NCBI GenBank assembly: GCA_965235115.1
Contig: OZ249436.1
Span: forward strand, 37,698,001-37,762,000
Source of the DNA: Laetmonice hystrix
Taxonomy: Eukaryota
Direction: 5' to 3'
DNA: 64,000 bases
The notes below the pieces were generated by a model. It was not told where the DNA came from. It did not search any database and saw only the letters and a list, made by a program, of their open reading frames with translations. The translations under genes and the position numbers were made by a program. Positions 28,645 through 37,600 of the stretch are shown in pieces; position 1 is the first letter of the stretch, and every line of letters begins with the position of its first letter.

Positions 28645-31600
28645 CTACTGGAAGTTGTGGTAGGCGAGGTTGATGTCCAAATAGGTCTTAGCTGCATCGT
28701 ACAAGTATTTGTATTGTTTCTGCAAACAAAGAAAAAAAGGAGCGTTTAATCGTTCTTCGTTTTTGGATCTGGCTGCAGAGAAATACTGTTTGTGTCTATA
28801 TTATACGCTCACTATGTGGTTAGAAATATTTATGTCATACTTCACAGGGATATCACGATCCCCTAACTAAGAATAGAAATACTGTTTTTCGGGTATCTTA
28901 AAGAGTTCTTACCTTATACATGTATAAAATTTTCCTATATTATTTTCTGTTTCTTATTTTCTTTTGTTAGACATAACATATAATTTTGTTTGCCTAAATA
29001 GGTAGTACTTTTGCTTCTTTACAGACAGACATCTTGATAAAAGGATATAGAGTTCTAGTTCTTATTTCATGAGAAATATAAAAAATGAGGCAATGGTTAC
29101 CATATCGCTAACAAGTTGCGGTCTGGACATCTGAACTTGTCGCACCACCTGGAAAACATCGAGTTCCTGCTCCGTTTTGATCATATCGATGAGACAGTCT
29201 AGAGCACAGTAGATACCCGATCTGTAGAGACCATACCTGAAACACAGCAGTTGACATAATTGGTTTACACCGGTAGGAACACTAAGTCAGAAAAGCGTCT
29301 TACATGCAGTTTGGTCCATCTTATTTTTCGCTTTACATAGCAAACACCATCAGTGAAATCGGACCACATCATAGATAAATCATTTCCACCAGCTTGACGT
29401 TAAGGAAATACTACAATTTTTATCGGATAGCTAGACCCCCCCCCCCCCCCCCCATTGTAATTTTTCAATACATTGTACTTCACATATAGCCACCTGCCAT
29501 GACCAGACTAATTTAAACAGAAGCCACCAGGTGTCGCACCAATCGAGCATACCTCCCGCCCAGGCACTACCACGCGTGGGGAAGGAATACAACATGCACA
29601 TGGCTCCTGTTATATCTATATTCTTTAATTGTATTTAAACCAGCACAAATCCTAAATGTTGTTGAGTTTCTATTCTTTTTAATAACTGAGTTGCATTGCG
29701 GCTGATACCATCCTGTCCTACTCAAGTTTTGGTTGTTGTTGTTGTTGTTTATTTTCAAGAAGAGGGTATTTATACAGTTACGTTTGATATACATTACAAG
29801 AGTTCTATGAGGATGACCCTTTCTTGAGGGTGCTGCCTAAACCTAGTAGGCTGTACCTTAACCATAACAAAATTAGAAATACTAATGTTTCGTCCGCCTA
29901 TTACCGTGGTTGGGCGGCAGTACCCTATACAAAGAAAAACAACAAAAAAACACACACACGCAAGTAGAGAGTATCTCATGAGGGTGTTCTGGGGCCCGCC
30001 TCTCGAAGACGCCGCAAAGCCACGCACCGCGCATCCCATCGTGAGCATTCTCAGACAATAGAATACGCAGCGCGCAACTCCACGACGTCCCTAAGAACGG
30101 GTCCCTGGTCCTGCCCACCCACTCCAGCCCTAGTGATTTGCTTGAATGCGTACCTAATATATAGGCTACGCGGAGCAAGATGCTCGTGGAGGCTACTTAT
30201 AGGCGGATCGAGCGAGTGGGCCAGGCTGTTATTACCTTTGCCTATTAGTCAGTTTAGGTGTATCTACATGACGCTATGGAGTAATGGTGATGAAAGTGGT
30301 GAATATGGGTGTGAGAGTGGTGAGTATGGGTGGGGAGTGGGGGGGGGGGTCGTTTGTATTGAGATATTATATGATTTAAGTAATAATGCTTTGTATTAAG
30401 AGACTCTTGTATGCTCTGTAAAATTCATGTTTACTTTTTGCATGCTTTATGTTGTTTGCAAGCTCATACCATAACCTTGTTGCCTGGTAGATTATTGTAT
30501 TTTGTGATGAGCTTAGCCAGTATCTTGTTGGATGAGGGTCGGTTGAGTGACGAGTATTATGATCATGAAGGTTCGAATTTAGAGTAAAATGTTCATTTAG
30601 GCGTGCTGGTAACAAGTTTGCATAATATCCATACATAAATTTGCCCAGGTTGTATTTATACAGTTCATTTAAGGGAAGTATTCCTAGCTCCTTAAAGATA
30701 GGTTTTGTATGATCATTATACTTGCATTTCTTTATACACCTTATACTCTTTTTCTGCAAGACAGCAAGTTTGTTTATATGTGTTGGATGAGTACCGCCCC
30801 ATAGTGCTATTCCATAGTCAAGGTATGGCTGTATTAGGGAAGTATATAATATTTGTAATTGTTTAGCTGGTATGTTATTTTTGATTTGATTCATGATGTA
30901 TAAAGAACCGGAAAGTTTGGCTTTGCACTGATCAATATGTGCATGCCAATTTAGTTTGCTGTCGATGGTAATTCCCAGAAACTTAAAGCTGTCTACCTGT
31001 GTTATTACTGATTCTCCAATTTTTACCTGGCAATTTTCGGTATTCGTTACTTTAGATTTGGTTAAGTACATACAGACAGTTTTATTTACATTCAGTGATA
31101 GTTTGTTGGCTCTGAACCAGTCATCAAGGGCACAGAGATCGTTATTCATGTTATTATATAGGGTGTTTATGTTAGGCGAAGTGAGATATACTGTAGTGTC
31201 ATCAGCAAAAAGTATAACTTTTAGGTGGTTTAGGCATCTTGCCAGGTCATTTGTGTAAATAATAAAGAGGAGCGGTCCTAGAATCGAACCTTGGGGAACG
31301 CCACAAGTAATTTCCATTTGCTCAGATTCAGAGTTTTTATACTTCACATATTGTCTTCTGTTAGTTAGGTAGCTACTGAACCATTTGAGTGCGATTCCTC
31401 TTACACCATAATATTGGAGCTTATCCAGCAAGATACCGTGATCTATTGTATCAAAAGCTTTTGACAGGTCGAGGAAAGTAGCCAGGCAATTTGATTTGTT
31501 TTCGAAGGCATCTACAATATCCATATTAAGTTCGGTCACGGCATGTATAGTTGAATGCATCGGCCTAAAACCATATTGACTCTTATATATCCTATTTTTT

Positions 31601-34600: not shown

Positions 34601-37600
34601 TATAATTCCTATGTGGATCTTCACATACATACACAGTAACATGCCCGCACACAATGAACACATTTAGCCCTACATGTATTTCACACGCCACAATGCCGTG
34701 TGCTGTGTCAGAACCGGCCCATGGGGGGTGTCCATACGGACTAGACCCAGGGTCAGTTCGACACAGCAGCTCGGGATGATTCCTATATGGATTTACACAT
34801 GTATACACAATAACATGCCCGCACACAATAGACAAGACCATTAAGTAGATACAGACACGTGCATTTGTGCATTTGCAACAGCATACAAAGTTAACACTCA
34901 AGATATGATTTTGGCCAATAGGACTAGGTTCAATATTGGTTTCCGGTGCTACAAAATATTTCTCTGAGAATTAGGTTAATTTAGCAACGGCCTTAAGAAT
35001 CTGATTAAGCCAGCATTTTGCGGTGTCATTATGAGGGTGAAGTCCGTCTCTAAATTTGGCATACTTGGTTCGTCGACGGGAGTCATTTTTGTTGCACTTA
35101 TGGTGAATCGAGTCTTGTAAATATGGAGTTGGGAGTTTATCGTCATAGTTCATTGCACATATTGATCTGTTTAAGACAGGTATGGCGTCGTCAATGACTG
35201 ACTGGAGTATGCAATAGTTTGTGAGTTGCTTGTTGTAAGTGTTCAAGTCGATGCCTGTTAATTCAGAAATAATGCACCGATAGCCTGCAGAGGTTAATAG
35301 TTGTTTGGCTGAAGTATATTTGTCAGTTAATGATTCGACGAGGGCCGGTAGGTTGTCAAAGCGCGGACGAACTAAGCGTTTAGTTCTGTCGAAAGAGTAT
35401 TCAAGTCGAGTTAGATCGTTTACACCCAGTGCAATTATAATGAGGTCACACTTTTGGTAACCACTCTGCAGAAAGCGCCGGGTGCCGCTAAGGATTGTAG
35501 CTCCTGAGTAGGAGATGACTTGCAGTTGGTAATCTATTTTGTAGTTTGACAGGATGTTATCAAAATGCTTTGTTCTGGAGTCACCAAGTAAGATGCATTT
35601 AGAAATCTTCGTCGTCATTGCAATAATTGTGTACTACGCTGGTCCGGGAGCCTCAGTGTTTGTTAGAGTGTTCCTGTATTCCACCAGGATCTGGCCATAG
35701 AACTGTAACAAGGGGAAGGCCGACTCTCGCTTGTGCCGCTTGGGGCGCTAGTAGTGTCATGTTTTTCGCAGCGCCCCCACCGGTGAGGAGAGACGTAATG
35801 TCATTTGCCTTGGCCCAAGCACCTGAAAGTGTAAACATGGGCAATGGCCTTGTCTATTGTGTCCCTGAATGCACAAATTATATCAAATTAATTTTAGAAT
35901 CTATAAAAGTATATGGCATCCACATTCACATTCACATCTGTTACTTAATCTTTTCAAGATTTACGAAAGAAAACTCAGATTATGAGGGTACGAAATTGTA
36001 ACGTCACAAACTTTGCCGATCCCTGGCGATGACAGTCTTGGATTGAGAAAGGAGGGACTATGCTAAACAATTCTAAGTCTATGACAGTGTTTGGTTCAAT
36101 ATTTTATCCACTTATATCACGTTTCGACGTTCTTCCTGGTGTATTTTAGCAGTTAGGGGCGTTTGAACTGCCGAAGCGAAGCACCGTCCGCCATTATTTA
36201 GGGCCCGTTATGATCACATTCCATTGTGGCCCATTGTGACGTAGCGCTATTGTGCATTGTTCCTGACGTCGCTGATTGGGTCTCTCGATCACGGTGTGCG
36301 CAGGGCCCGATAAAATCGATTTTTAAAATATCTCAGAGTTTCCCAGGGCACTTAAACCTTTTCCAAGCCTTTGTTACATTCAGCTCCACTGCCTTTACAC
36401 TTTATTCAGAATCAAGTTGAAGTTAAAAGCAGTAGAGTCTAGGCCTAATGTCGCCGTAGACTGCTAGCCTAGCCTTGCACAGTTGCACCGGAGCTAGGCT
36501 AGATTCCTCTCGTTCTAGGCTTAAGATCTAGGCCTAGTTGACAGCCCCGCCTTCAAACGGCGTCATACACAGTCGTCTTTCTTCGACAGGTCTACGATTT
36601 TTCTTGGGTTAAATAACTTTAGAGATCTACTGGCGGAAAGCACAGTGAGTCACAGTGGACGACTCCGTCCATGTTGTGCGCACTGAATCGTCTCTCCTTA
36701 CCGGTGGGGGCGCTGCGAAAAATGCCACTGTTTTGGGCGAAACCATTGTGACGTCACTAAGTACGCATTCCCCTTGTTACAGTTCTATGATCTGGCCAAG
36801 GAGGTTCAAGAAATTGCCAATAATGGAGCCTGCACGTATCTTGTCCCGCTGAGAGAGTGTGAGGCCACAACCAAATTCACAGTCAGAGGTAGCTTCGTAA
36901 AGGGTGCCTTTGGTGGCGCAACCACTTGATTGCTGTTCCAGTGTAATAACCCCTGGTGGCGAATGGGGTAATTAACGTATACAACCTGGATTAGTGTTCC
37001 CGAAAGTTGAGATGAATGACCGCCTCCTCCACATTGAAGTGGGTTTCCAGGGAGAAACACCCGGTTGGTTATCCCGTATTTTATGGTTTCTTACACAGAG
37101 GTGTATCGACAGATATTCCCGATACGTGTAAAGAGTATAGGCCTACCGTATTTGTCTGGCATTTAATCATTATAATTGCAGCAGATGGTTCAAAACTTGA
37201 TACCGGAGTCTCAACCATGATTTTATTCATTTGCAAAAAGTGGAATGATGCCGATAGGTACTCTTCTTTTGTTTCACAAATTTTGTTTTATTCACTCCCG
37301 TAGTGAACCAAGAAACGGTCTACTCACTTGCACATGACGACAACGGTCTGATTCTGAGAGTTTTGTTGCCATTTTTGCACTTGATCTTTGATTTGAAAGA
37401 GAGTTTTGGCGGGGATAGGATCTTGTTCCTGTGCAGGGAATTCCTTAACGGAAAACACATACACCGTCCGTGTTTCGTCTCCCTAAAATACATAAAACAC
37501 ATACAGATAGAAACGGTACCTTCTCGTATACATACCTAGGTGAACATACAGATAGAAACGGTACCTTACCTAGGTGGACATACAGATAGAAACGGTACCT

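Follow-up and report, generated by a model that had tools for sequence, protein, structure and literature searches.

Can a stand-alone esterase serve as the ORF1 protein (ORF1p) of a long interspersed nuclear element (LINE)? This question is raised by a stretch of 64,000 nt of Laetmonice hystrix (OZ249436.1, positions 37,698,001-37,762,000; hereafter the window, whose numbering is used throughout), which carries such an element on its minus strand. A first-pass annotation had described an unusual three-part element made of an open reading frame (ORF) 2 with APE endonuclease and reverse transcriptase (RT) domains, a 174-bp tandem array and a 215-aa esterase whose ATG is preceded, at a distance of six codons, by an in-frame TAG; all of these parts are present. 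Its view that they form a single element holds in so far as the layout is unusual and the parts most likely belong together, but it missed an upstream piece of ORF1 and a miniature inverted-repeat transposable element (MITE). The claim that ORF1 is the esterase only has to be abandoned, since the cited TAG ends a separate NADAR-type ORF; the esterase-only appearance is a product of 5' truncation together with the MITE insertion. We consider it likely that the locus holds one copy of a CR1-group (Daphne/Crack-like) LINE that is young, multicopy and built of three ORFs, in the order ORF1 with NADAR domain, esterase, repeat spacer and ORF2. Its supports include the NADAR tail, which comes out on top of a blind scan of the window and whose reading frame, with the MITE disregarded, continues as far as the TAG.

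We found the end of ORF1 in two pieces. The last ORF1 codons and the TAG stop (35634-35695, minus strand) are in frame with a piece beyond the MITE, where LINE sequence resumes for 119 nt more (36790-36908, minus strand) and where 40 codons read from 36908 encode the C-terminal part of the NADAR domain, as identified by homology to the protein P0169 and by a profile scan. Once an insertion of 1,101 nt is allowed for, the ORF1 remnant comprises 57 codons to the TAG (35636-35634). The insertion is a 1,094-bp non-autonomous DNA transposon (35696-36789) with terminal inverted repeats (TIRs) at 35696-35795 and 36689-36789 and a 7-bp target duplication (35689-35695 and 36790-36796). In all four of the public runs used here (X1-X4), contigs bridge the site, passing from 35697 to 36814, which means that other copies of the LINE lack the MITE. 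The MITE landed after the LINE and interrupts the ORF1 frame. Its ends may be of the P-superfamily type: MITEs of this superfamily have CA..TG TIR ends and target duplications of 7-8 bp, features that the TIRs and the 7-bp duplication fit. The MITE interior (about 35960-36500) has a contig depth hundreds of times that of the flank, with many loose ends, and is probably a highly abundant repeat or contains one.

By itself, the 40-aa NADAR piece matched nothing in a search of 5.8 billion proteins nor in Pfam, and its identity was found solely by way of homologs. The starting point is P0058, one of the six members of the esterase family with a long N-terminal extension (see below), a decayed homolog that joins a C-terminal domain (CTD), a NADAR domain and an esterase of the window type in one frame, and so shows the same order of parts in another record. 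The piece read from 36908 aligns with the NADAR end of P0058, with 3 of 5,000 shuffles reaching the score. A search with the N-terminal part of P0058 led to six further NADAR proteins, the three longest of which (P0169-P0171, 427-431 aa) are the closest to the ORF1 piece and combine a long N-terminal helical region with an L1 ORF1p-like RRM/CTD and a NADAR domain. The ORF1 piece is 51% identical to P0169 over 37 aa (pairwise E value 4e-9), and its hhalign result was 94%. When the six frames of the window were scanned blindly with an ORF1-NADAR profile built without P0058, the ORF1 piece was the best of 2,833, with an E value of 6.2e-7 against 1.2 for the next. P0169 matches Pfam NADAR (E 6e-13), the profile of the NADAR ORF1 homologs matches the NADAR structure 8bau (E 1e-14) and human L1 ORF1p (2ykp/2yko, E 3e-4), and the top 10 Foldseek rows for the predicted model of P0169 are all human L1 ORF1p. 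The P0169 cluster has 10 members, on contigs of up to 0.55-2.8 Mb, 8 of them full length, as expected of an active transposon. P0169 also stops about 20 residues past its NADAR motif, similarly to the ORF1 remnant.

The window copy lacks the N-terminal three quarters of the NADAR domain as well as the coiled coil, RRM and CTD; the proteins most similar to the surviving tail have these three. ORF2, the esterase, the array, the NADAR tail, the MITE and the reading frames are read directly from the window; for the lost 5' part we infer, from these homologs, that the ORF1p of the full element most likely consisted of coiled coil, RRM, CTD and NADAR. The conserved Glu of the LYEA motif is kept in the ORF1 piece (E125 of the Phytophthora enzyme, numbered by spacing), and the Trp that follows it is replaced by Phe. 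NADAR enzymes strip ADP-ribose from guanine in DNA (PMC11543638), an activity that the element's domain may share. In the ESM Atlas, look-alike clusters of the NADAR ORF1 and of the esterase are without names, and Annelida is the commonest phylum among the few members for which one is recorded. A scan of GTDB with ORF1-NADAR gave 32 loci in records titled bacteria, in which the NADAR part alone was matched, and these were not used.

The esterase (34971-35618, minus strand) is a free-standing SGNH/GDSL enzyme of 215 aa with an isoelectric point (pI) of 9.3, whose ATG lies 15 nt after the ORF1 TAG and in the same frame as ORF1. Its Ser14, Gly39, Asn67, Asp191 and His194 are all present, so that the intact Ser-Asp-His set of the first-pass annotation is confirmed. 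In an alignment (A2) of 78 roughly full-length sequences, chosen from 157 esterase relatives plus the window's own, Ser14 is conserved in 77, Gly39 in 75, Asp191 in 77, His194 in all 78 and Asn67 in 55. The block III column of Asn67 holds Cys in 21 of the 78, an unusual variant of the oxyanion hole. The Pfam GDSL matches fall under the curated cut-off (E 2e-6 and 2e-4), and a PDB sequence search with the single esterase sequence gave no match. Structure prediction, which the annotation had proposed as a check, returned a model with a pLDDT of 96.6 and Foldseek matches to SGNH hydrolases (E 2e-8). Superposition of the model gave a Z score of 18.5 with a root-mean-square deviation (rmsd) of 3.9 A over 185 residues, and comparison with 4rw0 gave a Z score of 17.7 with an rmsd of 2.5 A over 169 residues; the model is thus clearly predicted to adopt the flavodoxin-like SGNH fold.

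Searched against 1.84 billion sequences, the profile of this esterase collects 1,558 representatives at E<=0.001, of which 667 remain at 1e-10. Among the best 150 of these 1,558, from which all counts of family architecture are taken, 144 are at most 300 aa long. The N-terminal extension, assessed in the 121 members with a whole domain, is at most 15 residues in 98, 16-60 in 17 and longer in 6. Most homologs have a Met just ahead of the first strand, and the family's median pI is 9.0. The family sequences are automatic gene calls, which establish short frames and leave the starts unproven. Searches of viral contigs with the esterase, ORF2 or ORF1-NADAR, of metagenome contigs, and of GTDB genomes with the esterase found no relative of the element. 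We tentatively propose, at slightly less than an even chance, that the free-standing esterases of 200-230 aa (over 1,500 clusters) are the signature of a large lineage of invertebrate LINEs, so far undescribed, that are tricistronic and carry two accessory enzymes. Three members, P0010, P0023 and P0114, contain esterases of this family in tandem, two to six in each, preceded in P0010 and P0023 by an RRM-like N-terminus (a weak RRM match, E 0.08); these are possibly products of a host gene that captured a transposon esterase.

ORF2 (30376-33435, minus strand) is intact and encodes an APE endonuclease (Pfam E 3e-7) and an RT (RVT_1, E 2e-43) in 1,019 aa. A Pfam scan at E<=1 returned RVT_1, two endonuclease families and three chance matches, and neither an RNase H nor a C-terminal zinc knuckle was among them. 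By its length, the missing zinc knuckle and its RT motifs, which we take to be diagnostic, ORF2 looks like that of a CR1-group element. Its sense strand is 40.8% A and 65.4% AT. The 3' untranslated region (UTR) of about 640 nt (29734-30375, minus strand) ends with AATAAA (29753-29748) and a (CAA)n tail, and the last 231 nt of the element have no significant fold (z -0.9). A tail of short repeats rather than poly(A) is as in the CR1 group, within which a poly(A) tail is described as unique to Zenon (PMC13343379).

The copy spans 36908-29734, that is 7,175 nt with the MITE and about 6,074 nt without it, and is truncated at its 5' end at about 36908, inside the NADAR domain. A candidate 6-bp target-site duplication lies directly at both ends (36909-36914 and 29728-29733); it is the sole match of at least 6 bp between the two flanks searched, and a 6-mer by itself is weak. 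Contigs of the flank start at 36909, that is, at the 5' limit of the element. In all three large runs, the contig that contains the esterase crosses the MITE site and exceeds the part that matches the window, in X1 by about 1,308 letters, not far from what the missing ORF1 (roughly 1,110 nt) and a UTR together would need, and in X3 and X2 by fewer. The contigs on the ORF2 side and on the esterase side both terminate within units of the array, and among the 13 listed joints there is none by which the array alone is removed. Depth in X1 rises in steps from 64 in the flank to 213 in the esterase, 488 in ORF2 and 590-920 at the 3' end, steps that fit a multicopy family with 5' truncation; they give no copy number and were not used to count.

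Esterase stop and ORF2 ATG are separated by 1,535 nt, most of which is taken up by the array (33818-34829, minus strand; 5.8 units of 174 bp with 98% matches), in agreement with the separation of about 1.5 kb and the near-perfect repeats first reported. The four central units are alike, those at 34166, 34340 and 34514 being identical to the unit at 33992. Degenerate older units extend toward ORF2 (33535-33817, minus strand), with a local alignment score of 113.5, whereas the best of 500 shuffles reached 92.5; the flank on the esterase side gave no signal of degenerate units, 15 of 500 shuffles reaching its score. Identical central and degenerate outer units fit an old, homogenised repeat. A hairpin of 66 nt (-36.8 kcal/mol) occurs in every unit, for the unit at 33992 at positions 34006-34071, and none of 200 shuffles folds as well as the sense strand. 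The fold scores are nearly equal on the two strands (z -2.7 sense, -2.6 antisense), so the hairpin is not strand-specific. The sole substitution within the hairpin keeps the pairing; since the other differences concentrate in the end unit, this is no test of it. A scan of 8.5 kb with Rfam gave two matches at chance level, and in the array it recognised neither a ribozyme nor any other known motif. We regard the array as probably non-coding and a protein gene in the spacer frame as unlikely, on the evidence of the codon differences and Pfam results given below.

Following from the three-ORF reading, the full-length element would measure about 7.4 kb and comprise a 5' UTR, ORF1 (about 430 aa), the esterase, the 1.5-kb spacer, ORF2, the 3' UTR and (CAA)n, and the window copy would have inserted in an already 5'-truncated form, cut within the NADAR domain, inside a phosphatase intron, with the MITE arriving later. 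A single transcript would be made from the now lost 5' end. Like L1 ORF1p, the ORF1p of the element would form multimers that coat this RNA. Ribosomes halting at the ORF1 UAG would re-initiate 15 nt on and release a free, basic esterase. Termination-reinitiation is described for SART1 and was proposed for L1 with a 63-nt spacer (PMC5972666), and the 15-nt gap between ORF1 and the esterase suits it. The esterase may bind anionic membranes and hydrolyse an acyl ester like that of ZfL2-1, which is active and binds anionic liposomes (PMC3905857); this membrane-related role is suggested by the basic pI that the two share. ORF2p would be a rare product, arising through re-initiation or an internal start within the spacer, and would copy the RNA by target-primed reverse transcription. 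The array would be a non-coding repeat of variable number, homogenised by slippage or unequal exchange.

Other readings of the same parts have to be weighed against this one. The esterase is in frame with ORF1 and begins five codons past the stop, so that read-through of the UAG could yield a minor ORF1-NADAR-esterase fusion with the esterase tethered to the coiled coil, and in Table S1 of Schneider et al. (PMC3905857) 23 of 24 esterases lie at least 67 residues into a longer frame. We regard this as rather improbable, given the Met that most homologs have just before the first strand. In P0058, moreover, the esterase Met lies 13 residues after a motif that in P0169 lies 21 residues before the stop, a spacing that suggests an overlap in another frame in that lineage and that a deletion could mimic. 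Somewhat better placed, and still unlikely, is a spacer that is translated with its protein sequence irrelevant, in which the frame-preserving unit of 58 codons would carry ribosomes on from the esterase toward ORF2, where short ORFs would pass them to its start. A stop-free frame of 436 codons (33660-34970, minus strand; 393 aa from its first ATG) continues the esterase frame through the array; of the six frames of the unit, that of the esterase is the sole open one, the length of the unit is divisible by 3, and none of the six contig variants in this frame creates a stop. By chance, flank and unit would be open together with a probability of about 0.002 (20,000 dinucleotide shuffles), a post hoc figure from one element, and 30% of shuffles leave some frame of such a unit open. 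A 37-codon ORF ends in a UGA that overlaps the ORF2 AUG, a mere hint, as AUGA overlaps are common by chance, and three out-of-frame AUGs precede the in-frame one. The combined proposal, a tricistronic lineage whose ORF1p bears a NADAR de-ADP-ribosylase and whose separate esterase acts on membranes, together with a translated, sequence-neutral, frame-preserving hairpin array, is likewise an unlikely one.

The array also invites the idea of two adjacent elements, an ORF1-less LINE with the array as its 5' UTR fused to the 5' half of an element with ORF1-NADAR and esterase. Arrays near the 5' UTR are known in some ORF1-less CR1-group elements (PMC13343379), and the array is unspanned by the listed contigs. 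We hold this to be improbable for the present copy, because other, MITE-free copies also pass from the esterase into an array unit, no tail or terminus lies between esterase and array, and one candidate target duplication encloses everything; a fusion of two elements is plausible as the evolutionary origin of the layout. Least probable of all, and hardly tenable, is the original proposal that the esterase alone is ORF1, with the array providing either the function that ORF1 then lacks or a third protein, rich in Cys and His. In its favour are the free-standing esterase and the array frame, open over the 393 aa mentioned above, but a NADAR-type ORF ends at the very stop that had been cited, and the RNA binding and multimerisation that the array was to replace most likely came from a conventional ORF1p lost here. 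Nor does the frame look like that of a third protein, since all nine codon differences between units are non-synonymous, five of the six contig variants change an amino acid and one is synonymous, and the array ORF gave short, repeat-inflated Pfam matches only, with no stretch passing by itself.

Several points weigh against the preferred three-ORF, CR1-group reading. A purely non-coding view of the array leaves the open spacer frame unaccounted for, and the spacer contains 49 sense AUGs, by which the translation of ORF2 is left unexplained. Among the 150 family members, NADAR stands beside the esterase in one clear and one weak case, and none of them has a link to an RT. The weak case, P0150, has a NADAR tail before an esterase fragment (Pfam E 0.012, below the cut-off) that the ORF1-NADAR profile did not detect. 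The model of P0169 is of low confidence (mean pLDDT 59). All four runs come from one sample; the joint at the MITE site and the esterase contig were paired by their equal depth (213), and no listed contig spans the array, so that the co-occurrence of all parts in other copies, like the full-length element of about 7.4 kb, is an extrapolation. The label Daphne/Crack-like is provisional and drawn from structure, tail and base composition; Daphne/Crack is itself described as not monophyletic (PMC10294476).

The LINE is inserted in sense orientation within an 8.1-kb intron of a tyrosine-phosphatase gene. Contigs of run X4 connect 28500-28719, 29101-29236 and 37326-37484 (minus strand) across GT-AG introns, whereby X4 behaves like an RNA run, although it is not recorded as such, and the middle exon (29101-29236) matches Pfam Y_phosphatase (E 5e-8). 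Between 28500 and 29641, the flank contigs show 7-11 substitutions and 23 gap letters relative to the window, and matching ends at 29641; the runs may stem from another haplotype or individual, and the LINE insertion may be polymorphic. The junction without the MITE and the stretch 34796-35415 are likewise covered by X4 contigs, whereas most of ORF2 is uncovered, a gap that was not used as evidence. One of them joins 30053 in the 3' UTR to 33760 in the spacer, with 5 extra letters and non-splice ends, and with X4-specific differences at 33801 and 33808, near the joint; this is possibly an ORF2-less, internally deleted derivative. Elsewhere in the window, about 130 copies of a 46-bp satellite occupy 6477-12315, further arrays lie at 37499-38015, 39459-40350 and 42203-43098, and an open frame on the plus strand (17921-18373) presumably resembles a DEG/ENaC channel exon.

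Schneider et al. (2013) suggested that RRM and esterase in ORF1p are redundant or even mutually exclusive (PMC3905857). If the three-ORF reading is true, an RRM-type ORF1 combined with a conserved, separate esterase argues for an esterase role other than RNA packaging, and this long-open role becomes testable, as the esterase ORF could be deleted while ORF1p stays intact. A sense transcript with three ORFs and a 1.5-kb AUG-rich spacer poses the question by what route ORF2 is translated, the NADAR domain hints at a host defence that may act through ADP-ribosylation of nucleic acids, and a large family of 'hypothetical proteins' would be explained as probably transposon-borne.

Each part of the element has a precedent, and for their combination in one element we found no published description: the literature searched, with Repbase and Dfam outside the search, yielded no three-ORF LINE with a separate esterase and none with an RRM-type ORF1 plus esterase. 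Daphne/Crack elements (L2-2), with a type II transposase-22-like ORF1, share an APE-RT ORF2 of about 1,000 aa and a microsatellite tail (PMC4120745; PMC13343379; PMC10294476), as well as the L1-type ORF1 that the homologs suggest here. Fish Daphne ORF2 is 39.1% A and 66.8% AT (PMC7140322), against 40.8 and 65.4 in the window. The window element differs by the additional NADAR domain, the additional esterase ORF and the 1.5-kb repeat spacer; LINE esterases are described as ORF1 domains (PMC4120745, PMC13343379), and the ORF1 table of PMC4120745 holds no subgroup with both Tnp22 and esterase. A YbiA-type NADAR domain occurs in ORF1 of Tx1 LINEs of Crassostrea gigas, which belong to the Tx1 clade, whereas ORF2 looks CR1-group here, and for which the account in PMC12477816 mentions no esterase in the part that concerns them. 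ORF1-less CR1-group elements have arrays of 1-5 units of 100-500 bp upstream of ORF2 (PMC13343379); those arrays lie near the 5' UTR of single-ORF elements, whereas the present one lies between coding ORFs. A separate accessory GDSL ORF is found in the bdelloid Vesta and Athena retroelements (PMC5408684), which are LTR and Penelope-like elements and not APE-type LINEs, and in which the esterase is ORF3. The closest parallel to the esterase is the type IV ORF1p of ZfL2-1, CR1 and RTEX (PMC3905857, PDB 4c1b), likewise a basic SGNH esterase with intact catalytic residues upstream of an APE-RT, to which our family profile gives a weak match (4c1b, E 3e-4, 69 columns). There the esterase, about 165 aa long, closes ORF1p as its C-terminal domain and in general follows a coiled coil, and no esterase ORF1p with an RRM was found by Schneider et al. 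among the Repbase elements that they surveyed (PMC3905857); in the window it occupies its own 215-aa ORF downstream of an ORF1 that most likely bore an RRM. The window esterase is not a member of type IV ORF1p, but it may work like one.

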